Below, one piece after another: positions 22,157-46,186 of a DNA stretch of 64,000 bases (position 1 is the stretch's first letter; every line of letters starts with the position of its first letter). Under the pieces are notes generated by a model that worked only from the letters and a program-made list of their open reading frames with translations, ran no database searches and was not told the DNA's origin. Source of the DNA: a virus (Duplodnaviria; Heunggongvirae; Uroviricota; Caudoviricetes); the IMG/VR virus record IMGVR_UViG_3300003332_000015, positions 82,576 to 146,575 of that record, one strand, 5' to 3'. A program made the translations under genes and the position numbers.

Positions 22157-22471
22157 ATGAAATATATAAAGAATGATTTAACAGAATTAAGAAAGAAAAT
22201 TAAGGAAACGAGAGAAATAAGTAAGACAGCAAAAGATATGTGGGATAGATCATCCGCACAATGTAAGTTACATAGTTTAAAACAACAATACAGAAATAAA
22301 CATGTATTGTATTGTTTATGTAAAGGTCGTACTTATAAAGAAATTGAAGCTAAAGTACGTGAAGATAATGAATTACATATTCCAAGTTTAAAAAGATTAT
22401 GTATAGGATATGAAACATTATCTTTTAATGAAATTAGTGAGGAACAGTTAGAAGGATTATTAAAATGGTAA
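22157..22471 (+). CDS. hypothetical protein
   Basis: 104-aa ORF. Confidence 0.45.
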   Translation: MKYIKNDLTELRKKIKETREISKTAKDMWDRSSAQCKLHSLKQQYRNKHVLYCLCKGRTYKEIEAKVREDNELHIPSLKRLCIGYETLSFNEISEEQLEGLLKW

Positions 22472-22833
22472 AGCAAGTAATAATTGTTAGAACTGATTTG
22501 GATATGCCTCTTGGAAGAATTTCGGCACAAGCAGCACATGCTTCAATTGCAGTTTTTCTTGATATGGGAAAATGGAACAAAGATAGTTTTACATTAAATA
22601 ATGTTCCAGAGGATATTCAGTATTGGATGAAAGAATCTTTTACTAAAGTAATATTAAAAGTTCATAGTGAAGAAGAATTAAATGCTTTAGCAGAATATGC
22701 TGAATTAACAAACTTACCTTACGCAATGATATCTGACGATATTAAAAAGAAAATGCACAAGATGGCTTTAGCCATTGGTCCTGCAACAAACGATAAATTA
22801 GATGTTATTACAAAAGGTTTAAAACTTTTATGA
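22465..22833 (+). CDS. peptidyl-tRNA hydrolase, PTH2 family
   Basis: N-terminal VIIVRTDLDMPLGRISAQAAHA matches the PTH2 signature. Confidence 0.65.
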   Translation: MVKQVIIVRTDLDMPLGRISAQAAHASIAVFLDMGKWNKDSFTLNNVPEDIQYWMKESFTKVILKVHSEEELNALAEYAELTNLPYAMISDDIKKKMHKMALAIGPATNDKLDVITKGLKLL

Positions 22834-22881
22834 TTTAGAAATTACATAGTGGTGAGGGTACCAAGTAACTTCACCACACTT

Positions 22882-22954
22882 GCCCTTATCGTATAATGGT
22901 TAGTACAACACCCTCTAAAAGTGTTTGGTTTGGGTTCGACTCCCAATAAGCGGC
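22882..22954 (+). tRNA. tRNA-like gene with anticodon CUA (putative amber suppressor); acceptor stem imperfect
   Basis: D-arm gtataatggttagtac, stem acacc/agtgt (C31·A39), loop cuCUAaa, T-arm ttggg-TTCGACT-cccaa. Acceptor gccctta vs taagcgg pairs at 5 of 7. Confidence 0.45.
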
Positions 22955-22958
22955 ATTT

Positions 22959-23031
22959 GGGAGAGTAACTCAGTGGTTAGAGTTCGGAGCTGATATCTCC
23001 GCGGTCGATGGTTCGACTCCATCTTTTCCCA
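22959..23031 (+). tRNA. tRNA-Ile (GAU)
   Basis: Stem cggag/ctccg, loop cuGAUau, T-arm gatgg-TTCGACT-ccatc. Confidence 0.85.
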
Positions 23032-23120
23032 TATTTATGTAGGTGTCGAAAGACTTTAAGGATACGCAGAAGGGCAACGTTTGTTCACCCTTTACCTATT
23101 ATTAAATAAGGAGACTTAAA

Positions 23121-23687
23121 ATGAATGAAGAAATAGAAGTTAGTGAATTATTATCTATTATTGGTAATTGGTTAAAAAGAAATAAGAAAATTGTTTTAAT
23201 TACCTTTGGTATAATACTTAGTGTATTAGCAATTGTAATGTTTTTTGTAAAAGTTATTGAACTACCCATTAAAGAAGGAAGAGTAGTTGAAAGAACATAT
23301 GATGAAGAACATGTTGCTTATTTAGAAGATAGAAAATCTGTAAAACGTACAGAAGTTTATACCACAACTAATTCGAAAGGTAATATAGTTGTAAGGATTA
23401 GACAAGTACATGACTATTATATGTATTGTGTTGATAAGCATTTAGATAGAGAAGACTATATTGTAAGAATAGAACAACCATCTAAGAAACATGAAGGAAA
23501 AATTCTTGGACGTTATATATATGTTTCTAAAGAAATATATGATAAGTTAGAAATTAAAGATTATTTTGTAGCAGATTTTAAAGAAAGAAAAGAATCTACT
23601 AGAGATAAAAATAATAGTATAAGTCAAGTTACTGATTGGTCACGATTACATGTTAATATGGAACCTTGGCTTACTAAACAGTATTAA
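23121..23687 (+). CDS. membrane-anchored hypothetical protein
   Basis: N-terminal hydrophobic helix after a short charged segment. Confidence 0.5.
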   Translation: MNEEIEVSELLSIIGNWLKRNKKIVLITFGIILSVLAIVMFFVKVIELPIKEGRVVERTYDEEHVAYLEDRKSVKRTEVYTTTNSKGNIVVRIRQVHDYYMYCVDKHLDREDYIVRIEQPSKKHEGKILGRYIYVSKEIYDKLEIKDYFVADFKERKESTRDKNNSISQVTDWSRLHVNMEPWLTKQY

Positions 23688-23692
23688 AAAAT

Positions 23693-23767
23693 GTCCTCTT
23701 AGCCAAGTGGTCAAAGGCGGGGGATTGCAAATCCCCTAGTTCCTCAGTTCGAATCTGAGAGAGGACT
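23693..23767 (+). tRNA. tRNA-Cys (GCA)
   Basis: Perfect acceptor gtcctct/agaggac, loop uuGCAaa. Confidence 0.85.
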
Positions 23768-23783
23768 TATAATTTTTAGGAGT

Positions 23784-24098: not shown

Positions 24099-24099
24099 A

Positions 24100-24516: not shown

Positions 24517-25233
24517 GTGAGTAGAATATTTGTAACAGGCGATACACATGGTGGAGCTGTTGGTGATTTGGATAAATTAACATCAGACAGCTTTAAAGAA
24601 GGAAAAACACTTACTAAAGATGATTATGTCATTATATGTGGTGATTTCGGTTTGATTTGGGATGTTAAAAAAAGTAGTAAAAGAGAACAGTATTATTTAG
24701 ACTGGTTAGACGAAAAACCTTGGACCACTTTATTCCTTGATGGTAACCATGAAAATCATAAAAGATTAGATGCTTTACCAACTGAAATTAAGTTTAATAA
24801 TCCTGTAGGTAAAGTAAATAATTCAATTTACCATTTAAGAAGAGGATACATTTATACTATAAATAAACAATATTTTTTTGTTTTTGGTGGTGGATTTTCT
24901 ATAGACAAAGCAAGACGAACTACTGATATCTCTTGGTGGGAAAGAGAAATGCCTAATCAAGAAGAATACCAAAGAGGTTTTGATCAATTAGCTTTTCATG
25001 ATAATAAAGTAGACTATATACTAACTCATTCTTGTAGTAATAAAATGTTTAAAGAACTATCTTATCATCAAAACATGGATCATAAAATATCTGGAGAAGA
25101 TGATTTAAGAAATTATTTTGATACAGTTGAGGAAACAGTTAAGTACAAAAGATGGTATTATGGCCACTTTCATTATGATTATCTTTTTGATAAATCACAA
25201 ATATTATATAATTTAGTTGTAGAATTGATTTAA
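24517..25233 (+). CDS. sbcD: SbcD/Mre11-like nuclease (T4 gp47-like metallophosphoesterase)
   Basis: GDTHGG and GDF...GNHE phosphoesterase motifs; immediately upstream of the SbcC-like gene, as in T4 47-46. Confidence 0.7.
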   Translation: MSRIFVTGDTHGGAVGDLDKLTSDSFKEGKTLTKDDYVIICGDFGLIWDVKKSSKREQYYLDWLDEKPWTTLFLDGNHENHKRLDALPTEIKFNNPVGKVNNSIYHLRRGYIYTINKQYFFVFGGGFSIDKARRTTDISWWEREMPNQEEYQRGFDQLAFHDNKVDYILTHSCSNKMFKELSYHQNMDHKISGEDDLRNYFDTVEETVKYKRWYYGHFHYDYLFDKSQILYNLVVELI

Positions 25234-25269
25234 AAAATGTAAATAATTTATTATTATAGTAGTATAAGG
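25232..25269 (+). promoter_or_regulatory. phage promoter motif upstream of sbcC
   Basis: taaaaaatgtaaataatttattattatagtagtataagg. Confidence 0.45.
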
Positions 25270-25282
25270 AAAATAAAAATAA

Positions 25283-27304
25283 ATGATTATACACTCACTA
25301 GATTTAGAAAACTATGGAATTATTAAAAAAGCAAACTTAATTTTTAATGAAAAAGGGTTTAATGTATTCTCTGGTAGTACAGGACAAGGTAAATCACATA
25401 CTATTAGAGCTTTAAATTATTTACTATTTAATTATACATATGGTAAAATTGAAGATGATTGTAATTGGGATTCCAATTTCTTTTCTGCTGAAGTTAAGTT
25501 AAGTCACAATTCAAATAATTTTAAAATCTCTACTTTTTATGATAGGGATAATGGTGCAAGTAAAGAACTTGTTATTAATAATAAGAGTATAACAGGAAAT
25601 AATGAAGTTAAGGATACTCTTGCTAAATATTTTGATCCGTCTATAACAAAAGCATCTATGGTATCTTTGCAAGGTAGTATGGACATTGTTGAAGCAGGTG
25701 ATGCTGAAAGACGTGAATATTTAAAAAAAATATATGACTTAGATTTTAAAACACAAATTGATTCTATAAAAGAAGACATAGAAAATGTTAGTGATAAAAT
25801 TATTAAAATTGAAAAAGATATTTATCTGTATGAAAATAAAGAATATATACCTACTGATGAAAAAGATTCTAATGTAACAGAAGAAGAATATATTAAATGT
25901 GGACTTGAGAGAGAAGTATTAATAGTTAAAAAAGATAATTTACAACAATTACTTGATAAGGTAGATGATCTTTTACTACGAATTACAAAAGAAGAAAATA
26001 ATATTAAAACTTTACAAGAAAAAAAAGAAACTCTAGAAAATAGAACAACAGAAGTACAGAGTTCCTTAGACAAGGTAACAAAGGAAAGTAAAAATTCTCT
26101 TATTAAATATTATGCTGATCTTTTAAAACTTAATAAAGAGAAAGATGATATTGTATTAAAAAGAGTTCCTGCTTTTGATGAAGATAACTTAAACATAAAA
26201 GAAAAAGAATATGCTGATAATTTAATTTCTTTTCATAGTGCTAAAAAAGAATATGAATTAACTCAATTAGGATTATGTCCTACTTGTAAAAAACCTTTTG
26301 AAGTAACTGAAATTGAAACATATAAAAACGAATATGAAACTTCTTTAGAAAGGAAAGAAAGTAGTCTTACTGTAGTAAACAGTTTACGAAATCAAAAAAA
26401 AGATATCGATAATTTACAAAAAAAACAAAATGAACTCAAAGAAAAAAAGAATAGTCTAATAAAAGATATTAACTCATTAGACCTATTACAAAAGTCTTCA
26501 GTTACATACTCCGATGCACAAGTGTTAGATAAAACGACTATACTACAAGAAAAATTTAAAGAGATACAATTAATTTCTCTTGAAATAATATCTAAAGAAA
26601 AAGATAAAGAATTATTAATTTCTGAAAAAACCTCTATAGTAAATAAAACTACCGACCAAACTGATAACACAGATAGAATTAATGAGTTAAGATTGGTTAC
26701 TGATACTTATGAATCAATACAAATAGAAAATGATTTAATAATAAAAGCTAATATTAAATTAGCACAACAACAAATAGATGATGTTAAAAAATTACAAGAG
26801 TATACAAAAGAAAAAGTTAAATTAATAAAGACAAAAGATGAGTATGAAGTTATTAAAGAAATATTAAGAGTTGACTTTCCAAAGTTTGTTATTAACTCAA
26901 TGGTTTCAGATATTGAAAATGGTATGAATAAACTTTTAGATTTATCATACGATGGAAGATACAACTGTAGTATATCAGAATCAAAAAAAGGTTTACAAAT
27001 ACTATATGGAGATAAACAAAAAGATATTAAATTAAGCTCAGGTGGTGAACAAAATCTTTTTAATTTAGGATTTAAAAATGCTCTTACACAAATTGCAAAA
27101 CTTAAGATTTTAATACTTGATGAAGCTGATAACTTTTTAAGTGGTGACATTGCAAAAAGAGCTTTTGAAAGTTTAAACCAACTAATTGAGAACGGTGATA
27201 TCGATCAGATATTTTTAATATCACATAAAGAAGAAATTCGTGATATGATTGAAACAGATTTTAATGGAAAAATTTTCCATTTTGAAGAAGGAGAAGTATA
27301 TTAA
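25283..27304 (+). CDS. sbcC: SbcC/Rad50-like ATPase (T4 gp46-like)
   Basis: Walker A FSGSTGQGKSHT, long coiled coil with CPTC zinc hook, C-terminal ILILDEADNFL Walker B/D-loop. Confidence 0.8.
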   Translation: MIIHSLDLENYGIIKKANLIFNEKGFNVFSGSTGQGKSHTIRALNYLLFNYTYGKIEDDCNWDSNFFSAEVKLSHNSNNFKISTFYDRDNGASKELVINNKSITGNNEVKDTLAKYFDPSITKASMVSLQGSMDIVEAGDAERREYLKKIYDLDFKTQIDSIKEDIENVSDKIIKIEKDIYLYENKEYIPTDEKDSNVTEEEYIKCGLEREVLIVKKDNLQQLLDKVDDLLLRITKEENNIKTLQEKKETLENRTTEVQSSLDKVTKESKNSLIKYYADLLKLNKEKDDIVLKRVPAFDEDNLNIKEKEYADNLISFHSAKKEYELTQLGLCPTCKKPFEVTEIETYKNEYETSLERKESSLTVVNSLRNQKKDIDNLQKKQNELKEKKNSLIKDINSLDLLQKSSVTYSDAQVLDKTTILQEKFKEIQLISLEIISKEKDKELLISEKTSIVNKTTDQTDNTDRINELRLVTDTYESIQIENDLIIKANIKLAQQQIDDVKKLQEYTKEKVKLIKTKDEYEVIKEILRVDFPKFVINSMVSDIENGMNKLLDLSYDGRYNCSISESKKGLQILYGDKQKDIKLSSGGEQNLFNLGFKNALTQIAKLKILILDEADNFLSGDIAKRAFESLNQLIENGDIDQIFLISHKEEIRDMIETDFNGKIFHFEEGEVY

Positions 27305-30381: not shown

Positions 30382-30390
30382 GGGAAAAGG

Positions 30391-31011
30391 ATGACTTTAA
30401 ATTTTAAGAAAACATTTTTAATTGCATTGTTTATGACATCACTTGTTATAGCAAATGTAATTTCAAGTAAGATTGTACAATTAGGAAGCTTTATTGTACC
30501 AGGAGCATTTATACTATATGCTATCACATTTTTAGCGACCGATTTAATAAGTGAGCTTTACGGTAAAGCCTCAGCAAAGATGGTTGTTAATGTTGGATTT
30601 TTTGTTTCACTGTATGCGGTAGGGATGATTTATTTAACTAAATTGATGCCAGTACCAATATTTGGTATTGATGTATCAAATGCTTATGACATACTACTTG
30701 GTAATAGTTGGAGAATTGTACTTGGTTCAATGATTGCATACTATGTATCACAAACATTAGATGTATGGTTGTTTCATAAGATTCGTACTAAAACAAAAGG
30801 TAAGTATAAATGGCTTAGAAATAACTTATCAACTATGACAAGTCAAATGGTTGATACAGTAATTTTTATTACTATTGCTTTTGCAGGTGTTATACCAGGT
30901 ATCGGTTGGATGATTGTATCACAGTATATAGTTAAGATTATAGTAGCGGCTTTTGATACACCAATTTTTTACTTATTGACACACAATAACAAAATTATTT
31001 TAGAACAGTAG
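30391..31011 (+). CDS. yhhQ: YhhQ/QueT-family (DUF165) queuosine-precursor transporter
   Basis: Multi-pass membrane protein with the IANVISSKIV...ATDLISELYG start typical of the family. Confidence 0.7.
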   Translation: MTLNFKKTFLIALFMTSLVIANVISSKIVQLGSFIVPGAFILYAITFLATDLISELYGKASAKMVVNVGFFVSLYAVGMIYLTKLMPVPIFGIDVSNAYDILLGNSWRIVLGSMIAYYVSQTLDVWLFHKIRTKTKGKYKWLRNNLSTMTSQMVDTVIFITIAFAGVIPGIGWMIVSQYIVKIIVAAFDTPIFYLLTHNNKIILEQ

Positions 31012-31121: not shown

Positions 31122-32003
31122 ATGCAAACAGTTTATATAATGAAAGGACTTCCTGCATCAGGTAAGTCAACAAAAGCAAAACAGATGGTAGAAATGTCTA
31201 GTGGTAATCTTAAAAGAATTAATAAAGATGATTTAAGAGCTATGATGGATACTAAGTGGAGTAGAGAAAGAGAGAAACTTGTAATTGCTACAAGAGATTC
31301 TATTATTAGAACTTGGCTTTTTGAAGGGTTTGATGTAGTTGTTGATGATACAAATCTGGCAAAAAAACATATTACAAGAATTGAATCAATTGTGAACGAA
31401 TATAATAAAAAGTATAACAAAGAAGCAATAACAAAAATTATTGATTTCTCTTATACTGTAAGTGTTCACGAGTGTTTACGTCGAGATCGTAAAAGAGAAA
31501 ATCCTGTTGGTGATGATACTATATGGAGAATGTATAGTCAATTTATTGAATGGACAAAACCTGAAGTAAAAAAAGATAATAGTAAAGAAGATGTTTATCT
31601 TTGTGACTTAGATGGAACTATTGCTTTACATAATGGTAGAAATCCTTACTTATATGAAGAGTGTATACATGACTTACCTAATATGCCGGTTGTTAATGTT
31701 ATAAGGGCACTTATTAAATCTGATTTTAAAGTTGTATTTGTTACAGCAAGAGAAGATATTGGTAACTCAAAATCATTAACAATACAGTGGATTGAAGAAT
31801 ATATTGGTTTAAAAGATCCTATAGTTATTACAAGGGAATTAGGTGATAACAGAAATGATGGTATTACTAAAAGAGAAATGTATAACAAATATATTTTTCC
31901 TAAGTATAATGTTATTGGTGTATTTGATGATCGTAAAAGAGTTATTGATATGTGGCGTGATATGGACATCATGGTTTTTGATGTTGCAGGTCATACGTTT
32001 TAA
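31122..32003 (+). CDS. pnk: polynucleotide 5'-kinase/3'-phosphatase (T4 Pnk-like)
   Basis: N-terminal P-loop GLPASGKST plus C-terminal HAD motif LCDLDGTIA; start at ATG 31122 after AGGAG. Confidence 0.85.
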   Translation: MQTVYIMKGLPASGKSTKAKQMVEMSSGNLKRINKDDLRAMMDTKWSREREKLVIATRDSIIRTWLFEGFDVVVDDTNLAKKHITRIESIVNEYNKKYNKEAITKIIDFSYTVSVHECLRRDRKRENPVGDDTIWRMYSQFIEWTKPEVKKDNSKEDVYLCDLDGTIALHNGRNPYLYEECIHDLPNMPVVNVIRALIKSDFKVVFVTAREDIGNSKSLTIQWIEEYIGLKDPIVITRELGDNRNDGITKREMYNKYIFPKYNVIGVFDDRKRVIDMWRDMDIMVFDVAGHTF

Positions 32004-32014
32004 AGGAGATATAC

Positions 32015-33013
32015 ATGTTAGAAAAAACTATGAAACAAATTATAACAAAAAAAATAAATAAATGGACAGATACTATAACTGATGACACAGTTATAAAAGC
32101 TATTCAAAAAGATTTAATTATAACTGGAGGTTGTTTTACAAGTTTTATTCAAAATGAAGAACCAAAAGATTATGATTGCTATTTTCGTACTAAAGAGACA
32201 GTTTTAAAAGTAGCTGACTACTATGTTAATATATGGAATGAAAATCATAAAGGACAAAAAAATAAGATTGGTGAGACCACTAAAGTATTTGTTTTAGAAG
32301 GTGGTAAACCTTCAGCTGATTTTTTAAAGTACTATCAAATTGATAAGTTGGAAGAATCAGCTTCACGTATGATAGCAAACACACCATCTGACAGAGTTAA
32401 AATAATTTTTCCTTCTGATGGTATTGTTGGAGACCCTGCAGAAGTTAGGGCAAATGAGGAATTAGGAACTGTTATAGCAAATATTGAAGAAATAGATGAA
32501 GTAAAAGCTGATGAAATTCTTGATAAAGAAAGAACATCTTATTTTCCAGTGTTTATGTCTACTAATGCAGTTACTCTAAGTGACGGTATTCAACTTATTG
32601 TACGATTTTATGGTGAGCCTGATGAAATACATTCTACTTACGATTTTGAACATACAAAAGCGTATTATGATATTAAAGATAAAGAAATAGTAATACCAAG
32701 AATAGTATACGAAATGGTAGTTAATAAAACATTAAGATATACTGGTAGTAAATATCCTGTAGCTTCTTTATTCCGTCTTCGAAAATTTATTAATAGAGGG
32801 TGGACAATAAACGCTGGACAAATATTAAAGATTTCAATGCAAGTTTCTGATTTAGATCTTATGGACATTGATGTTTTAGAAGATCAATTAGTAGGTGTTG
32901 ATAGTGTATACTTTATGAATTTAATAGAACAGTTTCGGAAACAAAAAGAAAGTGACGGTAACTTTGAATTAAGTACCGGTTATGTAATGTCGATTGTTGA
33001 TAAAATATTTTAA
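32015..33013 (+). CDS. putative Pol-beta-superfamily nucleotidyltransferase
   Basis: ITGGCFTSF...DYDCYF fits a G[GS]x9-13DxD pattern; weak. Confidence 0.35.
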   Translation: MLEKTMKQIITKKINKWTDTITDDTVIKAIQKDLIITGGCFTSFIQNEEPKDYDCYFRTKETVLKVADYYVNIWNENHKGQKNKIGETTKVFVLEGGKPSADFLKYYQIDKLEESASRMIANTPSDRVKIIFPSDGIVGDPAEVRANEELGTVIANIEEIDEVKADEILDKERTSYFPVFMSTNAVTLSDGIQLIVRFYGEPDEIHSTYDFEHTKAYYDIKDKEIVIPRIVYEMVVNKTLRYTGSKYPVASLFRLRKFINRGWTINAGQILKISMQVSDLDLMDIDVLEDQLVGVDSVYFMNLIEQFRKQKESDGNFELSTGYVMSIVDKIF

Positions 33014-33022
33014 GGAGTTTAA

Positions 33023-33544: not shown

Positions 33545-33547
33545 AAA

Positions 33548-34681: not shown

Positions 34682-34838
34682 GTGTTAGATAAAAGAATAG
34701 GAACAAAAATGATACATCCTATGTTTGGTAATATAGAAATAAAAGATGTTCGTCAAATTGAAGGTTATACTTTAGCATATTTTAATAAGACGCTATGTAA
34801 TATGAATATACTAAAGGAAATATCAAAAGAGGTAGAAA

Positions 34839-35660: not shown

Positions 35661-35719
35661 TTACTCATATAATTGATAAGGACAGTCAATTGTCGTTGAT
35701 TGAAAATAGGAGAATAAAA

Positions 35720-36385
35720 ATGAATTGTCCAATATGTGATAGTGGTTTAGAGAAAGGTGAAATGTTAAGATTTGAAACTTTATGTGATCATATTGAAGAC
35801 CCTAATAATGAAAGAGGATTACCTTTAAGACCTACTTATATATGTAAAAAAAGGACTTGTCCTCTTTCAGGTCAGATGCTTTTTTGGGATGAGTTTGGTG
35901 AAGTTTATATTAATAAATATGAAATATATATGGAACTTGAAAAACAGTTTAAGCATATAAGTAGTCAAAATATTTTAGAAGCACAAAACTCACCTGGAAG
36001 AAAATGGGCAATGGAAGGAACATACAGTGGTACTAAGTATAAGTTGTTTAGAATAGGAAATTATAAATGGGAAATACATAGACAACATACTTGTAATGAA
36101 AAAGGTCAAGTTGTAAAGTATAAATTTTTTATACAAACTTTTAAACATGATAGTCCTGGTTGGATTTATTATTCTGGTTTTTGGCATATACTTATACTCT
36201 GTATTAAACAGTTTAATAGAACTTTAAAAAATTGGAAAGAAGATCATAATGATCATGAGAAAAGAGAATTACTTTCAAACTTTAAAGATCTAACCGAAAG
36301 AGATAAAGAAGATAATTATAGAATAGTTTTTCATTGGTATGTAAATACATTTTATGAAGAACTAAAAGAGGAACTTTCAAAATGA
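35720..36385 (+). CDS. zinc-ribbon protein (hypothetical)
   Basis: Start MNCPICDSG...CDH after GGAG; track ORF begins further upstream. Confidence 0.45.
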   Translation: MNCPICDSGLEKGEMLRFETLCDHIEDPNNERGLPLRPTYICKKRTCPLSGQMLFWDEFGEVYINKYEIYMELEKQFKHISSQNILEAQNSPGRKWAMEGTYSGTKYKLFRIGNYKWEIHRQHTCNEKGQVVKYKFFIQTFKHDSPGWIYYSGFWHILILCIKQFNRTLKNWKEDHNDHEKRELLSNFKDLTERDKEDNYRIVFHWYVNTFYEELKEELSK

Positions 36386-37182
36386 TGACTAATATAATTG
36401 AGAAGGACAGTTGGTTGCCACCAATTGAGGATATCAATAACTCCGGTATTTTTCTAACTTCTCAATTTCTTTCTACTAATATAATACACAGACTTGGCAA
36501 AGTCTTAAAAGTTAAAACACTTCAGGAGTACAAAATGGAAAAGTATACATACCCTAATTTCCCTAAAGATTTAATAAAATCTCAATTACATTTAGATCGA
36601 TATATAAATTTTATTGATTCAAGACCAATAAGAATAAAAAAGTCAAAAGATCTTTATACAGAAAACCACCATAAAGTTCCAAGAGCTTTAAGAGGTTCAA
36701 ATTTAAAAGAAAATATGGTTTTACTTACTGGAAGAGAATACTTCATAGCTCATTTAATTCTATGGAAGGCTTATGGTGGTAAGATGGCTAATGCTTTTTG
36801 GATGATGAGTATTAGCCAAAACTATAATAAATTAACCTCAAAACAATATGCTTCTATAAAATATATAGTATCAGAAAAAATGCGAAAAATGAATCTAAAG
36901 AGAGATCATTCTCCAATGTTGGGAAGAAAACATTCAAAAGAAACTATTAAAAAATTATCTGAGTCTCACATTGGACAATCTCCAGGAAATAAAGGTCTAA
37001 AGTGTTCACAAGAGACTAAAAATAAAATATCAATTGCTCAAACAGGAAAAAAGTATTCAGAAGAAACTAAATTAAAAAAATCTAAATCAATGACTGGTAA
37101 AAAATGGACAGAGAAACAAAAGGAAGCACAAAGTAAAAGATTTAAAATTTGGTACGAAAAGAGGAAATTAAATGAACAATAA
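36382..37182 (+). CDS. HNH homing endonuclease with NUMOD3-like repeats
   Basis: ENHHKVPRAL...NMVLLTGREYFIAH HNH core followed by repeated GxKHSxETxxK units. Confidence 0.65.
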   Translation: MMTNIIEKDSWLPPIEDINNSGIFLTSQFLSTNIIHRLGKVLKVKTLQEYKMEKYTYPNFPKDLIKSQLHLDRYINFIDSRPIRIKKSKDLYTENHHKVPRALRGSNLKENMVLLTGREYFIAHLILWKAYGGKMANAFWMMSISQNYNKLTSKQYASIKYIVSEKMRKMNLKRDHSPMLGRKHSKETIKKLSESHIGQSPGNKGLKCSQETKNKISIAQTGKKYSEETKLKKSKSMTGKKWTEKQKEAQSKRFKIWYEKRKLNEQ

Positions 37183-37756
37183 TTGGTGGTTTTGTAGTGA
37201 TTTACATTTATCACATACATCTATTCTTAGAGGGTTTAGAGGAACAATTTTTAAAACTGTAGAAGATCATAATGAAACTATAGTAAATAATTTATTATCC
37301 ATTCCCAAAGGAAGTAATTTAGTCATAGCAGGTGACTTATTTTGGAAGTTTAATTCTAAACAAGTTGAAGAATTTTTTACTAAGTTCAAAAAAGCTGGTA
37401 TATCTATTTTTATAGTCTACGGAAATCATGATAAATTATCTTGGTTTAAATACTCAATAATTCGTTCACATGGTCATAGAAAAATTATGGCAGTGGAAGG
37501 TCAAAGCATTACTGTTGATCATTATCCTTTAGTAGTATATAATCAATCACATTACAATGCTTGGAATTTGTATGGTCATATTCATTATGAAGATGCTACT
37601 TGGACAAAAGCAAAAAAAGATCCATTAGGATTACGATTCTCTGGAAAGAAATTAAATATAAATATTGAGTTACATGATTTTAAACCTTTAAGTTTCGAAG
37701 AGATAAAAACTTATATGGATTCCAGAGAAAATAATTGGGATTTTATAAAAAAATAA
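37172..37756 (+). CDS. calcineurin-like metallophosphoesterase
   Basis: CSDLHLSH...GDLF...GNHD motifs. Confidence 0.65.
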   Translation: MNNNWWFCSDLHLSHTSILRGFRGTIFKTVEDHNETIVNNLLSIPKGSNLVIAGDLFWKFNSKQVEEFFTKFKKAGISIFIVYGNHDKLSWFKYSIIRSHGHRKIMAVEGQSITVDHYPLVVYNQSHYNAWNLYGHIHYEDATWTKAKKDPLGLRFSGKKLNINIELHDFKPLSFEEIKTYMDSRENNWDFIKK

Positions 37757-37768
37757 GGAAGGAAAAAG

Positions 37769-37984
37769 ATGACGGAAAAGAAAGAAGAAGAGAAAGGTAT
37801 GGTTGCTTCTATAGTAGAAGTGTTTAGAGATCAAATGAAAGAACTGGAACCTAAAGAGGCAACTGTTGCATTTGTAGTATTATCTATTATAGGAACTTTT
37901 GGTCTTATTGGATTTACTTCAGCAATTGCCAGTGGACTAGTAAAATTAGTTCAAGTAATCGGTACAGTAGCTTCTTCTATGTAG
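37769..37984 (+). CDS. small membrane protein
   Basis: 71 aa with a hydrophobic C-terminal half. Confidence 0.4.
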   Translation: MTEKKEEEKGMVASIVEVFRDQMKELEPKEATVAFVVLSIIGTFGLIGFTSAIASGLVKLVQVIGTVASSM

Positions 37985-39506: not shown

Positions 39507-40736
39507 ATGAAGATTCGTAAAATGGGAATCATTATATTTGTTGGGCTGATACTTATTGTATTGGCGATGATGATGGGAAACATTGTAGAAACTGTTGATG
39601 GTGGTGAAATACATGTTAAGCAGGGTGCTGTTTCTGGAGACTTTACAGTAATTGTAGATGAAGGTTTATATATGCAGATGTTTGGTAAGATAACTACTTA
39701 TCAAAGAATGTATAGAACATATTTATCTGATGACGATCTTGACGGTGGTAAAGGTGCTGAAACCAGTAGTATTAATGTAAGATTTGGTGATGGTGGAACA
39801 GCAGATATATCTTCAGTAACAGAATGGAGACTTCCTTTAACAACTGAGGCTATGGTTAAAATTAAAAGAAATTATACTTCTTCAGCAATGATAGCTGATC
39901 AAGCTAGACAGTGGGTTATTGAAGTTGAAAAGCAAGTTGCTTCAACGTTTAAAGCTGATGAAACTTATAGCACAAGACGTGGAGAATTTTCACAGTTAAT
40001 AACTGAACAGATTATTAATGGTTTATATAAAACTGAAGCTGTACAAATTGAAATGCCAACCAATGAAGTTGATGATGATGGTAATCCTATTATGGGAACG
40101 TCTACTATTGTAAGAGTAAAACTTGATGATGATGGAGAACCAATTATTGTAAAAATTGGAACATTCCGTGAGTATGGTTTAACACTTGTAGATCATAAGT
40201 TAAAAGACATTGATTATGATGATACTATTGATAAGTTAATATCTCAGAAAAAAGAAGCTGAACAGCAAAGAGTTGTAGCTATTACAAATGCTGAAAAAGC
40301 AAAACAGGATGCTATAACAGCTGAAGAAACTGGAAAGGCAAGAGTTGCACAAGCACGTGCTGATGAAGAAGTTGCAAAGATTACTGCTGTAACAAGAGCT
40401 GAAAAAGATAAAGCTGTAGCTGAACTTAAAGGTAATCAGGAACTTGAAGTTGCAAGACTTGATAAGTTAGCAGCAGGGGAAGCTGCTTCTGCTAGGCTTA
40501 TTACTGAGAAAGCTGAAGCAGACGCAAATAAGTTAAAAGTATCTGCTGGTCTTACACCACAGCAAGCAGCTGAATGGGACTATAAGATTGCAGATGTTGT
40601 ATCAAAGAACCTTGCAAGTGTTGATCTTCCTGACATGATGATATTTGGTGGAGGAGAAGGGTCTCCTATGAATCCTTGGGATGCAGTTGGACTTGAGTCT
40701 TTTATGAATATTGCAGATCAAATTACAAATAAATAA
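39507..40736 (+). CDS. SPFH/band-7-like membrane protein with Ala/Glu/Lys-rich coiled-coil tail
   Basis: N-terminal TM then a VDGGEIHVKQG...GLY region like SPFH domains; long charged coiled coil. Confidence 0.5.
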   Translation: MKIRKMGIIIFVGLILIVLAMMMGNIVETVDGGEIHVKQGAVSGDFTVIVDEGLYMQMFGKITTYQRMYRTYLSDDDLDGGKGAETSSINVRFGDGGTADISSVTEWRLPLTTEAMVKIKRNYTSSAMIADQARQWVIEVEKQVASTFKADETYSTRRGEFSQLITEQIINGLYKTEAVQIEMPTNEVDDDGNPIMGTSTIVRVKLDDDGEPIIVKIGTFREYGLTLVDHKLKDIDYDDTIDKLISQKKEAEQQRVVAITNAEKAKQDAITAEETGKARVAQARADEEVAKITAVTRAEKDKAVAELKGNQELEVARLDKLAAGEAASARLITEKAEADANKLKVSAGLTPQQAAEWDYKIADVVSKNLASVDLPDMMIFGGGEGSPMNPWDAVGLESFMNIADQITNK

Positions 40737-40752
40737 GTATATATAGAACATA

Positions 40753-40787
40753 AAGGCAGGAGGATTGTCTTCCTGCCTCTTTTTTAA
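40753..40787 (+). terminator. rho-independent terminator after the SPFH gene
   Basis: aggcagga...tcctgcct stem followed by cttttttaa. Confidence 0.7.
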
Positions 40788-40869: not shown

Positions 40870-41604
40870 ATGGGTAGAGAAGAAAAAAAAGCTTTTAGAA
40901 ATGAGTACGACAAAAATCTTATAGCAAAATATAATAGACTACAAGAAGTTAGAAGTCTAATTTATGCTTTAGGGTGGGAAACATTAGATGTTCCTATACG
41001 TTATGGGTATGAAAGTTATTTTGTTTTAAGAGCTGATTTTCAAAAAAGTAAAAAAGCTAAATTTTATCAATCTTTACTTGATACAGTTAATAAAACAATT
41101 ACATGTCGTAATAGTTCTTTTACTTATGTTCCTTGTACTAATAAACATGTTAATCTACCTATGGAACATGAATTAGGTTACTGTAGTATAAAAACTTTTG
41201 AGACATTAAATGAAGACCAACAAAAATACTATTATACTTATTACAGAAGAACATGGAAAGGACTTCTTTACATTGCTGGGTATAGACTTATTGATACTTA
41301 TATGTTTGTTCCTAAAGTCTTCCCACATTATATATATAAGGTAAAAATTACAGACGAAACATTAGAAAAGGAAAGAGATGAAATAGATCATTACATTGAA
41401 AGTAATAATCTTTGGCCACGTATTTGGAGATATTTTGGTACAAAAGCAGGTTATAAACACGATCCTTGGTATCGAGAATCAAAAGCACAAAGAATAAAAG
41501 GTGTTATAGAGGAATACGAAAAAGAAAAACAAGAAGAAAATGAATATTGGGAAATTTATTTTTCTATGTTTGACGATGATTACGATTGTAATTGGGAGAT
41601 ATAA
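40870..41604 (+). CDS. hypothetical protein
   Basis: 244-aa ORF. Confidence 0.45.
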   Translation: MGREEKKAFRNEYDKNLIAKYNRLQEVRSLIYALGWETLDVPIRYGYESYFVLRADFQKSKKAKFYQSLLDTVNKTITCRNSSFTYVPCTNKHVNLPMEHELGYCSIKTFETLNEDQQKYYYTYYRRTWKGLLYIAGYRLIDTYMFVPKVFPHYIYKVKITDETLEKERDEIDHYIESNNLWPRIWRYFGTKAGYKHDPWYRESKAQRIKGVIEEYEKEKQEENEYWEIYFSMFDDDYDCNWEI

Positions 41605-41797
41605 TATGTTTGTATGTTCAAATTGTTCAAATTCAGAAAATCTTTTTTTAGTTATTGATGAAGAAAAAAGAATTGAGACTACAATTGTAGAAGAAATATT
41701 ACTTTGTCCTAAGTGTCTTGAAGAAATGAATAATAATGTACAGGATATGTATGAAAATAATCAGGATATGTATGAAAATAATCAGGAGATGTTATAA
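41605..41797 (+). CDS. small zinc-ribbon protein
   Basis: CSNC...CPKC. Confidence 0.35.
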
Positions 41798-42388
41798 ATG
41801 AAAATTACACAAGAGATGACAGAACATTTTAATACTAGAACTAACTTACATATTAATTTAGTTAAGAAATGGTATGAAAAAATATATCAATATTACAAGA
41901 ATACATTGTATAAAGATGGTACTTTAAAACGTATTCATATAAATAATCATGATTTCTGTAAATTTGAGTTACCTGAATATACACCTTATGTTTATCTTAC
42001 ATGGAAATATTATTGCAAAGATAATAATATAGAGTTAAACTTATCTGAAGAAATAGAAAATTCTATACATAAAGCAACATTACACCATATACAAAATAAT
42101 GCACATCATCCTGAATATTGGGATTTAGAATTTGATAATAATAAATTAAGTAAAAAGGATAGAGACGAAATACCTGAAGTAATGGTTAATGCAACAGAGA
42201 TGTCATTAAGTCATTTAGCAGAAATGCTAGCTGACTGGCTTGCAATGTCTGAGGAAAAAGAAACAGATGTTATTGAATGGGCTGATAAAAATGTTAATAA
42301 AAGATGGAAGTTTACTCAGGGACAAGTGGACTTTATATATAAAACTCTAAACAAAGTAAGTAAGGGACCAACACTATGGTCAAGATAA
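41798..42388 (+). CDS. hypothetical protein (His-rich, possible HD-like)
   Basis: ATLHHIQNNAHHPEY; weak. Confidence 0.4.
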   Translation: MKITQEMTEHFNTRTNLHINLVKKWYEKIYQYYKNTLYKDGTLKRIHINNHDFCKFELPEYTPYVYLTWKYYCKDNNIELNLSEEIENSIHKATLHHIQNNAHHPEYWDLEFDNNKLSKKDRDEIPEVMVNATEMSLSHLAEMLADWLAMSEEKETDVIEWADKNVNKRWKFTQGQVDFIYKTLNKVSKGPTLWSR

Positions 42389-42924
42389 TATTTTTAGACA
42401 TTGATGGTGTTCTTAATTCAGAAGAGTTTCATAAATCTGAAATAGGAGATCATATAAGAATGGTTGCTCATGCAAACTATATTAATAAAGAGTCACAAGG
42501 GAATGTATTATCCGATAAAGACATTTATATTGACCATATTGACCCAAGAGCGGTAAAACATTTACAGGAGATTATAGATAAAACAGATGCTAAAATAGTT
42601 TTATCTTCTACTTGGAGAAAAGGTCGAACATATACAGCATTACTTGAAATATTAAAAGAGTTAAATTTTACAGGTAAAATAATAGATGTAACAGGTACAG
42701 GGTGTAATGAATGTTACAGAGGAAATGAAATATATACTTGGATTAAAAATAATGAAAAACTTCTTGGTTATAATTATTCAGATTATAAAAACTATGTAAT
42801 TATTGATGGTGATGGTGATATGCTATGGTGGCAAAGAAATAATTTTATAAAAACAAGTTGGAAAACTGGTTTGGAAAGGAAACATATAGTTCAGTCAATT
42901 AAGATTCTTAATCAAGGAGACTAA
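42376..42924 (+). CDS. HAD-superfamily hydrolase-like protein
   Basis: N-terminal IIFLDIDGVLNS (DxDG motif I). Confidence 0.5.
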   Translation: MVKIIFLDIDGVLNSEEFHKSEIGDHIRMVAHANYINKESQGNVLSDKDIYIDHIDPRAVKHLQEIIDKTDAKIVLSSTWRKGRTYTALLEILKELNFTGKIIDVTGTGCNECYRGNEIYTWIKNNEKLLGYNYSDYKNYVIIDGDGDMLWWQRNNFIKTSWKTGLERKHIVQSIKILNQGD

Positions 42925-42925
42925 A

Positions 42926-43108
42926 ATGGGAGACATTTATAATCCATACTATGCTGATGATGAAACAGGTTATTTTTCTTCAGTAACAGATTATATAAGA
43001 ATACCTATACATAAACCTAGAAAAATAAAGGTGGGTTCACGTATTCTACTACATAAGAAACGGTCTAAGAAGAAATATTATTGTAATTGTAACTCAACAA
43101 TATTATGA
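42926..43108 (+). CDS. small hypothetical protein
   Basis: 60 aa. Confidence 0.3.
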   Translation: MGDIYNPYYADDETGYFSSVTDYIRIPIHKPRKIKVGSRILLHKKRSKKKYYCNCNSTIL

Positions 43109-43347
43109 GATGCCCGTGGTTAAATGGAAAGGAAAAAATAAAGATGACAAAAGAACAAATTGATTTAATAGTAGCAAATGCTGAGTATAACAGAATACAG
43201 TATCCTCATTGGAGACAAGGCCAAGCTATTTTTAATTCAGCATTTAACCTTTTTCCTTATGAAGCAAATCAATTACGTGCAACTCCTCATGATTGTTTTT
43301 ATGATAATGATTTAATAGATGAGTTTTTAAGTAACTTAGGGAGATAA
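43105..43347 (+). CDS. small hypothetical protein
   Basis: 80 aa. Confidence 0.35.
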   Translation: MRCPWLNGKEKIKMTKEQIDLIVANAEYNRIQYPHWRQGQAIFNSAFNLFPYEANQLRATPHDCFYDNDLIDEFLSNLGR

Positions 43348-43351
43348 AATA

Positions 43352-43675
43352 ATGAATAAGGAAAATTTTGTTAAAATAATAAATGCTATAAAAGAACAAA
43401 GAGAAATTGATCGTAAAGCTACTGAAGCTTTAGACTCCATATTTATAGATGTGATTGGAGGTTTCTACGATAATGAAACTTTATTTTCAGTTATTGAAAA
43501 TTATTTAGTAGAGCATTTTAAAGATGAGAGTGGTTGGATAGAATATTTTATTTATGATCTTGATTTCGGGAAAGATTGGAAAGAGGATAGTTGTTCTGAA
43601 GAGGATGGAACAATAATTGATATATCAACAATAGAAAAACTGTATGATTTTTTGGTATTAAACAATGGAAGATAA
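43352..43675 (+). CDS. hypothetical protein
   Basis: 107 aa. Confidence 0.4.
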   Translation: MNKENFVKIINAIKEQREIDRKATEALDSIFIDVIGGFYDNETLFSVIENYLVEHFKDESGWIEYFIYDLDFGKDWKEDSCSEEDGTIIDISTIEKLYDFLVLNNGR

Positions 43676-43892
43676 AATAATTGAATTACAAACAGAAAGG
43701 TTAATAGGAGAAAACTTATCTTCTATAGCTGTTGAATATTTACATGAGATTGATAAACCAAGTAAACCAATGCTTGCATATGGTGTTATAGAAGAAACTA
43801 CAGAAACATTAATTGTAGTAGTTAAAAAACCAGCTATTCCAATTGTTATGCAATTTATAAATACATTAAACCAACAAGGAATTCCAACATGA
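43665..43892 (+). CDS. small hypothetical protein
   Basis: 75 aa. Confidence 0.35.
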   Translation: MEDKIIELQTERLIGENLSSIAVEYLHEIDKPSKPMLAYGVIEETTETLIVVVKKPAIPIVMQFINTLNQQGIPT

Positions 43893-44140
43893 TGACAGAA
43901 ATAACTTGGGAAGAATTTAGGAAATCAGGATTACTTTTATTAGTAAATCAATTCTTACATATTTTTGGATTAGCGATTGTAGTTTATATGGAGTATGACA
44001 AAGTTATTCGTACATACCCCGCTAGAGTGAAATTCAGAGGATTTGCTGGGAAATCTTTAGATAAGGCTTATATAAATATTTCTAAATATATGAAAGAACA
44101 TGGTAAAGAACTGTATGATGAGGTGATAGAAAATGAGTGA
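43889..44140 (+). CDS. small membrane protein
   Basis: 83 aa with a hydrophobic segment. Confidence 0.35.
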   Translation: MMTEITWEEFRKSGLLLLVNQFLHIFGLAIVVYMEYDKVIRTYPARVKFRGFAGKSLDKAYINISKYMKEHGKELYDEVIENE

Positions 44141-45269
44141 TAGAAAATTAGCAAGCATTGAAAAAATAATATCTTTAGAACCAATTAAAGGTAAAGATAG
44201 GATTGAATTGGCAACAATATTAGGTTGGCACTGTATAGTAGGTAAAGAGGAATTTAAAGTAGGAGATTATGTTGTTTATTGTCAATATGACACCTTACTT
44301 CCAATCAAACCTGAGTTTGAGTTTCTTAGAAATAGGTGTTATAGTAAGAAATTTGATGGAATGAGAATTCGGAATATGAAAATGGCTGGAGTTTATTCGG
44401 AAGGAATTGTATTTAAAGTTAAAGATATTAAAGATTTAGATGCTTTAAGCGAAAAACAGTTATATGAAGGAAAAGATGTATCTGAAATCATAGGTGTACA
44501 AAAATATGACATCGAATCTCTAGAGGAAGTGGAAAAAGCTAAGGTAAGTAGGAATCCTATAATTAAGTATCTAATGAGATATAAATGGTTTAGAAAATGG
44601 ATAGGTAATAGAAAACCAAAATATGGATATCCTGAAGGTGTTCATAAAGCTAATGAAACAAATATTCAAGTAATATTTAATCGTTTAAAGGATAAAGATT
44701 TACTTTATTATAAATCCGAAAAACTTGAAGGTCAAGCTTGTACTTATCTTGTAACGAATAAAGGTAGATTTATGGTGTTTTCCCATAATGTAGGACTACC
44801 CAAATCAAATAATAATTGGTGGAGAATAGCTGAAAAGTTCAATATTGAAAGAAAAATTAAAAACTTTATGAAACTATATGATGTAAATGAAATGTATATA
44901 GGTGGTGAGATTATAGGACCAGGAATTCAAAGAAATATTTATGGTTTAAATGACTTAGATATGTATATTTATAATATTATATCTTTAGATAATAATAGAG
45001 TAGAAAATAAAATATTTGGTTTAAATGATATGAGATTATTCTGTAATGTTACAGGATTAAAAATGGTTCCTGTACTTGAAGAAAATGTTAAATTACTTGA
45101 ATCATCAGACGCTATACTAGAGGATTGTGAAGGTGAATCTATTTTTAATTCTTCTGTTAAAGGTTTAAGAGAAGGAATTATCTGGCGATCAAATTGTGGT
45201 AAATATGGTTTTAAAGCAAAATCTAAAAAATATCAAGATTTGTGGAATAAAAAGGAGAAAACAGAATGA
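44133..45269 (+). CDS. ATP-dependent polynucleotide ligase-like protein (KxDGxR motif)
   Basis: SKKFDGMRIR (KxDGxR) and SEGIVFK (EGxVxK-like); family assignment uncertain. Confidence 0.4.
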   Translation: MSDRKLASIEKIISLEPIKGKDRIELATILGWHCIVGKEEFKVGDYVVYCQYDTLLPIKPEFEFLRNRCYSKKFDGMRIRNMKMAGVYSEGIVFKVKDIKDLDALSEKQLYEGKDVSEIIGVQKYDIESLEEVEKAKVSRNPIIKYLMRYKWFRKWIGNRKPKYGYPEGVHKANETNIQVIFNRLKDKDLLYYKSEKLEGQACTYLVTNKGRFMVFSHNVGLPKSNNNWWRIAEKFNIERKIKNFMKLYDVNEMYIGGEIIGPGIQRNIYGLNDLDMYIYNIISLDNNRVENKIFGLNDMRLFCNVTGLKMVPVLEENVKLLESSDAILEDCEGESIFNSSVKGLREGIIWRSNCGKYGFKAKSKKYQDLWNKKEKTE

Positions 45270-45430
45270 GTAATGTTTATTGTACAGTATGTGGAAGTGA
45301 CTTTGTAAGATATAGATCAGATGGAAAAGTAGTATGTATGGATTGTCACTTTCACGGAAAACCGTCAAGATTTAAATGGATTGCTGAATTATTCTTTATG
45401 TTAAAGATTGGTAAGAAGAATGAAAATTAA
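45266..45430 (+). CDS. small zinc-ribbon protein (54 aa)
   Basis: CTVCGS...CMDCHFHG; ATGA overlap with the upstream stop; not in the track (<60 aa). Confidence 0.3.
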   Translation: MSNVYCTVCGSDFVRYRSDGKVVCMDCHFHGKPSRFKWIAELFFMLKIGKKNEN

Positions 45431-45596
45431 AATATTGGAATCTCAATCTTTTTATAATACTACGAATGCTTCCTCTGTATTGGAAACCGATATAAATAAA
45501 TGGTTATAGTATCATAGTGAAATTACTGTCTTTAAGATTGAGTCGACAACAATAAATAGTCATATTATAACAAGAGTTTGGTATGAGGAGTAAATT

Positions 45597-45857
45597 ATGA
45601 ATGTTAAAATTAAAGTTAGAATTGAAACAGATAAAATTAATGTTGAGTTAACTGAAGAGGAAGCACGATCATTATATAATCAATTGAAAGAATTCTTTGA
45701 ACAGGAGAAAACAGTTTATGTTCCCTATCAAATTCCTCTTTTCCCACTTGAACATATAATTAATCCTCCTTTATATATAAATGATTCTCCACCATATAAA
45801 ACAGGACATATTCCTAATGTAGTAATTACCTGTTCTTCAAGTAAAGAGGGTGAATAA
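45597..45857 (+). CDS. hypothetical protein
   Basis: 86 aa with RBS GGAG. Confidence 0.4.
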   Translation: MNVKIKVRIETDKINVELTEEEARSLYNQLKEFFEQEKTVYVPYQIPLFPLEHIINPPLYINDSPPYKTGHIPNVVITCSSSKEGE

Positions 45858-45862
45858 ACAAA

Positions 45863-46186
45863 ATGAAAGAACTACTATTTTCAATTACCAAAAAAGACTT
45901 TACTGTAACCTGGTTCTCAGGGACTGGGGCAGGAGGTCAACATAGAAATAAGCACCAAAACTGTTGCAGAATTAAACATAATGAATCAGGTGTTATCGGA
46001 ACAGGGCAGTCTAATCGAACAAGAATAGCAAATCAAAAAGAAGCTTTCAACAGTTTAACAAAGAATTTTAAATTTAAGTTATGGCTTAATAAGAAAATAT
46101 TTGAAATAGACTTAGATGTACAAGCAATTCAGGACAGAGTTGACAAGCAAATGCAACCAGAAAACATAAAAATCGAATATTTTTAA
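45863..46186 (+). CDS. GGQ-domain peptidyl-tRNA hydrolase (ArfB/RF-1-domain-like)
   Basis: FSGTGAGGQHRNKHQN...IGTGQSNRTRIANQKEA matches the release-factor/ArfB GGQ catalytic domain. Confidence 0.7.
   Translation: MKELLFSITKKDFTVTWFSGTGAGGQHRNKHQNCCRIKHNESGVIGTGQSNRTRIANQKEAFNSLTKNFKFKLWLNKKIFEIDLDVQAIQDRVDKQMQPENIKIEYF

Follow-up and report, generated by a model that had tools for sequence, protein, structure and literature searches.

The DNA analyzed here, referred to in the following as the window, is a stretch of 64,000 nt from a virus of the Caudoviricetes (IMG/VR record IMGVR_UViG_3300003332_000015, positions 82,576–146,575 of that record). Between positions 22465 and 46186 it encodes a PTH2-type peptidyl-tRNA hydrolase, a T4-type polynucleotide kinase–phosphatase (Pnkp), a nucleotidyltransferase (NTase), two RNA ligases, a metallophosphoesterase, a HAD phosphatase and a small protein with the GGQ motif of release factors, which an initial annotation had grouped as an RNA-repair and ribosome-rescue toolkit. 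All eight open reading frames (ORFs) were found where the annotation had placed them, on the + strand. When the family assignments were checked by profile search, seven scored above the curated Pfam cut-offs, and the eighth, the NTase, was supported by its predicted fold. To judge from these families, the genes probably make up a multi-part kit that would sustain translation under host attack on tRNAs or ribosomes, a reading to which we assign a probability of about 60%.

The Pnkp–Rnl1 block and the genes downstream of it

The Pnkp gene (31122–32003, with the start taken as called in L001/L002) encodes a 5′-kinase/3′-phosphatase that matched AAA_33 and HAD_PNKP with 120.3 bits. The protein aligned over its full length with T4 Pnkp, residues 3–291 corresponding to T4 residues 3–299 (1ltq, E = 1e-29), and both active sites, the P-loop GLPASGKST and the HAD motif DLDGT, are present in one chain. 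The Rnl1-family RNA ligase (33548–34681) scored 51.7 bits against RNA_lig_T4_1 (PF09511, cut-off 28.3), and when it was aligned with T4 Rnl1 (2c5u, E = 6e-9), the lysine of its KLDGS motif matched the motif I lysine of the T4 enzyme (TKEDGS). Identity to T4 Rnl1 is only ≈25%, the alignments, inspected for the C-terminal tRNA-specificity domain, end at residue 298–320 of 377, and the score against TIGR02308 was 65 bits, compared with a cut-off of 242. The two genes, separated by ≈1.5 kb, belong to a single gap-free block, and as a full-length Pnkp with both motifs and an Rnl1 with the motif I lysine they resemble the T4 pair. They differ from it in that the NTase gene and orf173 (33023–33544, + strand; no assigned family) are placed between them, and a gene for a protein with an AEP (primase–polymerase) fold, orf273, comes after. 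Furthermore, the T4 pair counters the anticodon nuclease PrrC; the phage of the window is not known to face a host nuclease of this type. Linkage of Pnkp and Rnl1 was observed in the window and in the related loci L006, L097 and L180.

The block comprises ten co-directional ORFs (31122–37984) with intergenic gaps of 12 nt or less, in the order Pnkp, NTase, orf173, Rnl1, orf58, orf273, orf242, a NUMOD3 homing-endonuclease-like gene (36382–37182), the metallophosphoesterase and a small ORF. The metallophosphoesterase (37172–37756), which is the last enzyme gene of the block, is of the calcineurin type (Metallophos, 34 bits, cut-off 21.5) and a candidate 2′,3′-cyclic or 3′-phosphoesterase. Its homologs were found near PTH2 genes, GGQ genes or tRNA clusters at seven other loci.

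Further downstream, a gene for an SPFH/Band-7 protein (39507–40736, + strand) is followed by a strong terminator at 40754–40778, and the genes at 40870–46186 may constitute another transcription unit. A sigma-70 promoter scan gave 119 sites compared with 111 expected, and was uninformative in DNA this rich in AT. The presumptive second unit includes a DUF5662 gene (41798–42388, + strand) whose 3′ end overlaps the 5′ end of the gene for a HAD protein (42376–42924). The HAD protein is of the stand-alone "Swiss-army-knife" RNA-repair type (HAD_SAK_2, 92.3 bits, cut-off 27.5), with an N-terminus reading FLDIDGV (motif DIDGV), and DUF5662 has invariant residues (H18, H51–D52, H97, H103–H104 and D146) in an HD-like pattern. 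The GGQ protein, described below, is encoded in the same presumptive unit.

The second ligase (44133–45269), which also belongs to this group, is of the Naegleria/Deinococcus (DRB0094) type, with a PHA02142 OB domain (PF21189) and an RNA_ligase domain (PF09414). It matched the Naegleria RNA ligase (5cot, E = 1.4e-22) across both domains, in two aligned stretches, and TIGR02306 at 6e-33, where its 114 bits fell short of the NCBIfam equivalog cut-off of 151. The ligase had been recognized in the initial annotation by a KxDGxR motif; the family was correct, but that motif, KFDGMR, lies in the N-terminal OB domain, and motif I reads KLEGQ. The lysine of KLEGQ aligned with that of KLDGS in NgrRnl. 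The protein thus shares both domains and the motif I lysine with the ligases of Naegleria gruberi and Deinococcus radiodurans, and differs from them in having KLEGQ rather than KLDGS as motif I.

A preprint (bioRxiv 10.1101/312249) cites a Band-7 protein together with a tRNA-like RNA for which a role as cofactor in ligation has been proposed. By a weak inference, the SPFH protein in the window could possibly serve as an RNA-repair scaffold.

The genes had also been described as co-located with the tRNA cluster of the phage. This applies to PTH2, which alone lies inside the tRNA array, but not to the other seven genes, which are found 7–22 kb downstream. Neither could the 24-kb span be upheld as one unit: only the block from Pnkp to Rnl1, and PTH2 together with a tRNA(CUA) gene, showed conserved linkage. 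The functional units, which do not form one operon, are in our reading the block at 31122–37984, PTH2 paired with its tRNA(CUA), and a more loosely grouped set of genes at 41798–46186.

The interval between PTH2 and Pnkp is occupied by an SbcCD-like pair and genes for MazG, a dNMP kinase, ThyX, a class 3 lipase and a Vut_1 transporter. The first pair (24517–27304), a metallophosphoesterase and a AAA protein of 673 aa that matched AAA_23/AAA_27 weakly, resembles an SbcD/SbcC-type nuclease; its SbcD-like metallophosphoesterase is separate from the phosphoesterase at 37172. The Vut_1 membrane protein (30391–31011, E = 1.4e-51), of the YhhQ-type queuosine-precursor transporter family, is encoded directly upstream of Pnkp, where it has a possible link to 7-deazaguanine modification of tRNA or DNA.

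The window as a whole has a G+C content of 26–33%, and its called genes are essentially all on the + strand. No structural genes were found within the 64 kb; other genes encode RecA, ribonucleotide reductase, ThyX and homing-endonuclease-like proteins, and we take the window to be an accessory (early/middle) region of the genome. The phage genome is ≈146 kb in size, and relatives are found on IMG/VR viral contigs of ≈147 kb. No DNA nearly identical to the window was present among the 50,697 phage records that made up our cultured-phage comparison set, and the NTase protein has an identical counterpart on a contig of 135–146 kb from a hydrothermal-vent metagenome (SRR3223410). We infer that the source was a large uncultured phage of a hydrothermal-vent metagenome, with low G+C.

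The NTase and the primase–polymerase-fold protein

The NTase (32015–33013, 332 aa) had been proposed as a Pol-beta-type candidate. It had no match in the local copy of Pfam, yet its predicted fold, that of the class II tRNA nucleotidyltransferases and poly(A) polymerases, agreed with this assignment: the modeled protein has the head-domain fold and the GG…DxD of a class II CCA-adding enzyme or poly(A) polymerase. Inspected by eye, the sequence keeps class II motif A but not the nucleotide-selecting RRD of motif B and EDxxR of motif D, where it reads FPVFMSTNA and YDFEH, respectively. Neither the NTase nor the other members matched the canonical CCA-adding enzyme family (PF01743) in Pfam, and no member matched RlaP (PF10127) at E ≤ 1. 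In a fold search of BFVD, the matches of the NTase were confined to phage NTases without a name and tRNA nucleotidyltransferases of giant viruses. Profile searches against PDB sequences with the NTase, orf273 and DUF5662 gave nothing significant.

In precomputed Pfam labels, the NTase and all its listed homologs are assigned to PF26128 ("Gad2"), a label that could not be reproduced with the local Pfam copy, where 0 of 36 members matched. Gad2 is a 400-aa predicted nucleotidyltransferase by which SPbeta-like phages escape Gabija through an unknown mechanism, and the Gabija inhibition phenotype is known for the SPbetaL7 and Brevibacillus proteins only (bioRxiv 10.1101/2023.05.01.538930). The window NTase carries the label in the precomputed set, and both proteins are predicted nucleotidyltransferases; it differs from Gad2 in its length of 332 aa, and in that it and its close relatives sit among RNA-repair genes. 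SPbeta-type phages were not found among the tblastn matches of the NTase. The predicted fold, together with the three different ligase families found beside the gene in close relatives, hints that the anti-Gabija mechanism of Gad2 may involve the addition of nucleotides to an RNA 3′ end.

The genomic context of the NTase was compared in close relatives (64–76% identity) and in a wider set of 80 IMG/VR loci, mostly 37–45% identical. L006 encodes Rnl1, Pnkp, YAcAr, the NTase and an Rv2179c-like exonuclease within ≈8 kb, with Rnl1, Pnkp and the NTase themselves within 7 kb; L097/L098 have the order Rnl1–orf55–Pnkp–YAcAr–NTase; L099 groups the NTase with RtcB and a short PF09414 ligase; and in L095 a PF09414 ligase lies 2.5 kb from the NTase. 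In the wider set, an RNA ligase was detected by tblastn within 6 kb of the NTase at only 2 of the 80 loci. Because the close relatives adjoin ligases and the wider loci rarely do, the link between NTase and ligase holds in this clade and not family-wide. A role as a general RNA-ligase partner, like that of RlaP, was accordingly rejected for the family and kept for the closest clade only.

Other settings were also observed. In the prophage-like L007 (GCA_900198705.1), the NTase gene (10001–10999) adjoins replication genes and a Tad2-like gene of the anti-Thoeris family (7404–7658), 2.3 kb apart, a context that we read as anti-defense, not RNA repair. Among cultured phages, Nachito and RSP15 have no repair gene close to the NTase, and KASIA encodes a polynucleotide kinase ≈3.5 kb away. 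The YAcAr genes of the relatives lie directly between Pnkp and the NTase (3202–3567 in L097; 9604–9963 in L006); the window has its YAcAr SLOG-domain protein at 10842–11267, just upstream of the tRNA array.

The product of orf273 (34839–35660, + strand) belongs to an unannotated family, of which only one of the 120 homologs listed carries any Pfam label. Its AEP fold was predicted with confidence, the model having the acidic DxD and sGxH motifs in place, and DxDxD and SGxH are invariant. The gene is located just downstream of Rnl1 in the window, in L006 (5663–6511) and in L180 (5001–5834). In L182 the homolog (5001–5795, 41% identity) is immediately followed by an OB-type ligase, and in L096 one is found near the NTase. 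Burroughs and Aravind reportedly described RNA-acting prim-pol domains in 2016.

Two predicted peptidyl-tRNA hydrolase types and the tRNA array

The PTH2 protein (22465–22833) is of the archaeal/eukaryotic type, scored 97.6 bits against PF01981 (cut-off 23), and aligned over its full length with S. solfataricus Pth2 (1xty, E = 1.6e-15); its scores against the NCBIfam equivalogs were below the cut-offs (92 vs. 126 and 76.5 vs. 82). The core residues are kept in 16 relatives. For the catalytic residues, which we take to be Lys18 and Asp86 in the numbering of Sso Pth2, the Asp is kept, and the Lys position is an Arg in this clade and a Lys in more distant phage relatives. A tRNA gene with the anticodon CUA, of the amber-suppressor type (22882–22954, + strand), begins 48 nt after PTH2. 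This pair (22465–22954) was present in all relatives recovered with DNA, namely L008 (10001–10469), L091 (2203–2693), L092 (159–642) and L093/L094 (482–976 in L093), with gaps of 28–49 nt and PTH2 proteins 66–73% identical. When the tRNAs of the relatives were aligned, the U-CUA-A loop was constant and the stems varied.

The other predicted hydrolase (45863–46186) is a stand-alone GGQ protein of 107 aa that corresponds to domain 3 of release factors (RF-1, 46.8 bits, cut-off 35). Its GAGGQHRNK stretch aligned with the GGQ loop of RF2/RF1, and its best matches were domain 3 of RF2, RF1 and PrfH; codon-reading domains are absent. It had been described as ArfB-like, and like ArfB/ICT1 it is a short GGQ protein without codon-reading domains. 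The likeness does not extend to the basic C-terminal tail that, in ArfB/ICT1, enters the empty mRNA channel: the 38 C-terminal residues of the window protein include seven basic and seven acidic ones, for a net charge of ≈0, and no ArfB/ICT1 chain was among its PDB matches. We refer to it in the following as a mini release factor.

PrfH was among the NCBIfam matches of this protein (1.1e-7), with only positions 104–163 of the 200-position model covered. The PrfH–RtcB pair is a precedent for the coupling of a truncated release factor to RNA repair (PMC6514570). Similar to PrfH–RtcB2, the window has a truncated GGQ release-factor homolog ≈600 bp from an RNA ligase, in this case the OB-type one. 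However, PrfH retains a codon-recognition-like domain where the window protein consists of domain 3 only, and the window ligase is of the ATP-dependent PF09414 family, RtcB not being found in the window. When the neighborhoods of GGQ genes were surveyed (80 loci kept of 258 matching IMG/VR stretches), such a ligase lay within 8 kb at 1 of the 80, and a PrfH–RtcB-like pairing of the GGQ gene with the OB-type ligase was rejected. Of the 80 viral loci, 33 had at least three tRNA genes within 8 kb, and many had more than 10. Adjacency to PTH2 was rare, and at 120 unrelated metagenome loci no query found a match.

That two types of peptidyl-tRNA hydrolase in one phage would be unusual was borne out by the cultured-phage records, among which 33 matched PTH2 and 32 the GGQ protein (17 of the 32 over most of the protein). 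Mycobacterium phage WXIN was the only phage with both among the matches listed, so the combination has a precedent. Comparable mini release factors of ≈100 aa, annotated with the RF-1 domain (97% coverage, 34–40% identity), occur in mycobacteriophages of the ScottMcG group and in Tunturiibacter phages, and PTH2 is also found in Myrna, phiM12, XacN1 and others.

PTH2, the mini release factor and tRNA(CUA) might instead form a translation-reprogramming set, in which amber codons of phage or host would be suppressed and the hydrolases would clear aberrant or dropped-off peptidyl-tRNAs or adjust termination, rather than respond to damage. The PTH2–tRNA(CUA) pair, retained here and in four sets of related contigs with its anticodon loop intact, points in this direction. 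So does the end of orf173, which reads FRKG-TAG followed by AAA and the in-frame ATG of Rnl1 (33542–33550); with its TAG one codon ahead of and in frame with the Rnl1 start, amber read-through would fuse the two proteins. In addition, the relative L008 (201 kb) encodes a tmRNA (15484–15771, tag DETETYYAQVA), itself a ribosome-rescue element. However, TAG is the stop codon of 6 of the 75 window ORFs, and there was no sign of TAG recoding within the window, where dropping TAG as a stop lengthened ORFs no more than dropping TGA. The in-frame arrangement of orf173 and Rnl1 is not kept in L006, the mini release factor has no codon-reading domain, and the PTH2 or mini release factor genes of Myrna, phiM12 and WXIN are not beside annotated tRNAs. 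On balance, we consider reprogramming improbable, and damage repair and rescue the better account of these genes.

The tRNA array that contains PTH2 (11955–23767, + strand) consists of 23 genes found by ARAGORN and two further long tRNA matches found by Rfam only. Three tRNAs on the + strand, found with Rfam, have inserts in the anticodon loop: one at 12798–12913 with a 44-nt insert and a 51-nt loop; one at 13283–13372 with a hairpin insert of 17–19 nt and a loop of 24–26 nt; and one of the Leu type, with a long variable arm, at 21357–21477, with a helical insert of 36 nt and a 43-nt loop. They scored 47–56 bits as tRNAs; ARAGORN missed two and miscalled the third. The inserts are predicted to fold into hairpins or a long helix with a GAAA cap, and at 17–44 nt they are below the size of group I introns.

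It had been suggested that the repair enzymes could seal the products of a tRNA splicing pathway. Pnkp and the NTase, with either Rnl1 or the second ligase, would then heal and seal the three tRNAs after protein-catalyzed excision of the inserts. T4 Pnkp together with Rnl1 can reportedly stand in for the yeast tRNA ligase in splicing, the tRNAs score well and their inserts are structured, and if two of the three inserts are placed at position 37/38, plausible anticodon loops result, Leu(UAG) or Tyr(GUA)-like. However, no splicing endonuclease family was matched among the 46 window ORFs scanned with Pfam, no bulge-helix-bulge was found, the predicted folds being continuous helices or hairpins, and no ribozyme or intron family in Rfam matched the inserts at E ≤ 1. 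Compared by eye, the inserts show neither a clear resemblance to one another nor a common motif at their junctions. Relatives with or without inserts that could mark the splice sites were not found either: those recovered through PTH2 have tRNA arrays without long inserts, those recovered through a 656-aa ORF in the array were too distant and lack tRNA arrays, and a single metagenome scan for the insert-tRNA pattern gave 120 chance matches and no tRNA. Pnkp and Rnl1 are also kept by phages that lack such tRNAs. The splicing role thus received no support from these searches, and we give it very little credence. The same applies to the variant in which inserts that do not self-splice are cut by some endonuclease or, within their helices, by host RNase III, and the exons are rejoined by the enzymes of the Pnkp/ligase/NTase block, which we hold to be highly doubtful. 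If true, it would represent protein-catalyzed tRNA splicing in a bacterial virus.

Other features of the array are as follows. The tRNA at 20345–20430 scored 47.2 bits against the Rfam tRNA-Sec model (cut-off 47) and was called Ser(TGA) by ARAGORN; a normal Ser tRNA with a long arm is the probable identity. The 656-aa ORF (14288–16258), midway through the array, belongs to no Pfam family, and its relatives, 37–38% identical, lie on viral contigs. A weak Phage_endo_I-like ORF was found at 16615–17274.

Proposed repair and rescue compared with known phage complements

A similar complement has been described for jumbo phages by Iyer et al. 2021, in the syntax of Burroughs and Aravind 2016; their section on RNA repair (PMC7824862, section 3.4.9) includes tRNAs; Rnl1, Rnl2 and RtcB ligases; PNK-HAD and the stand-alone "Swiss-army-knife" HAD; calcineurin-like and HD-like phosphoesterases; RlaP and CCA-adding NTases; and archaeal-type PTH2. 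The same component classes are present in the window, with Rnl1 and Rnl2-superfamily ligases and a Pol-beta-fold NTase. It differs in that its ≈146-kb genome is not of jumbo size, its NTase is neither RlaP nor a canonical CCA-adding enzyme, and it additionally encodes the stand-alone GGQ protein and the AEP-fold product of orf273, neither of which appears in that section.

What we observed in the window are enzyme families and their catalytic motifs, and the steps by which the kit would act follow the established biochemistry of those families. On tRNAs cut by a nuclease, Pnkp would remove 2′,3′-cyclic or 3′-phosphates and phosphorylate the 5′-OH, and Rnl1 would then reseal the anticodon loop as in T4. 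The metallophosphoesterase, the HAD_SAK_2 protein and the HD-like DUF5662 protein may supply additional end-healing activities, the CCA-adding-like NTase, and perhaps orf273, could restore lost nucleotides, and the OB-type ligase could seal nicks in duplex RNA. PTH2 and the mini release factor would hydrolyze peptidyl-tRNA that had dropped off, or that remained on stalled ribosomes or split large subunits, and so recycle tRNAs and ribosomes, and the 23–25 tRNAs of the phage itself might stand in for host tRNAs that had been destroyed.

Repair and rescue is the reading we favor because of the families and motifs, the NTase fold, the gap-free block, and the recurrence of the NTase and the AEP-fold protein beside ligases, as well as the linkage of PTH2 with tRNA(CUA), the GGQ genes in tRNA arrays and the component list of the jumbo phages. 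Several observations weigh against it. The eight genes are dispersed over 24 kb amid genes for DNA and nucleotide metabolism. The sole tested phenotype in the NTase family is anti-Gabija, and ligases are rare near the NTase in the wider set. AEP enzymes act mostly on DNA. Ligases were likewise seldom found near GGQ genes (Rnl5 at 1 of the 80 loci, Rnl1 at 5–6 of 80, depending on the query set). DUF5662 is elsewhere fused to P-loop kinases of the zeta/AAA_33 type and to an NT5C HAD nucleotidase, and adjoins a dNMP kinase in L006, contexts that fit nucleotide-pool metabolism as well as RNA end healing. Finally, the best named relative of the metallophosphoesterase is PdeM, a DNA-damage-response endonuclease, with a score under the family cut-off.

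Alternatively, the genes could be unconnected accessory genes, grouped only since large phages pack variable early genes co-directionally. The NTase would then be an anti-Gabija protein, the AEP-fold protein, the metallophosphoesterase and the OB-type ligase would act in DNA repair or replication, and DUF5662 and the HAD protein in nucleotide pools. The span does mix the repair genes with the SbcCD-like, MazG, dNMP kinase, ThyX, lipase and homing endonuclease genes and many unknowns, and the NTase is found alone or in replication or anti-defense settings in L007, in cultured phages and at 78 of the 80 IMG/VR loci; the fusions and the L006 neighbor of DUF5662 and the PdeM match of the phosphoesterase also count for this view. 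On the other hand, repair by Pnkp and Rnl1 has been established by experiment in T4, and the two remain linked here and in three relatives; the NTase and the AEP-fold protein recur beside differing ligase families in close relatives; and PTH2 is fixed beside a tRNA gene, while GGQ genes are enriched in tRNA arrays. We regard a chance collection as unlikely, though it has a stronger claim than reprogramming or splicing, and prefer repair and rescue as the common function.

Since such kits have already been described in large phages, the window represents a richly stocked example and not a new system: the kind of system is already known, and this is an unusually complete instance of it outside the jumbo size class. 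There are four leads to follow: the Gad2-labeled NTase, with its CCA-adding/poly(A)-polymerase-like fold and the three ligase families near it in close relatives, an unannotated primase–polymerase-fold family that recurs beside RNA ligases, a PTH2 gene fixed beside an amber-suppressor-type tRNA, and mini release factors that are common in phage tRNA arrays. As a gene set the window adds little to what has been described, but it shows that the full jumbo-style complement is also found in a hydrothermal-vent phage of ≈146 kb.

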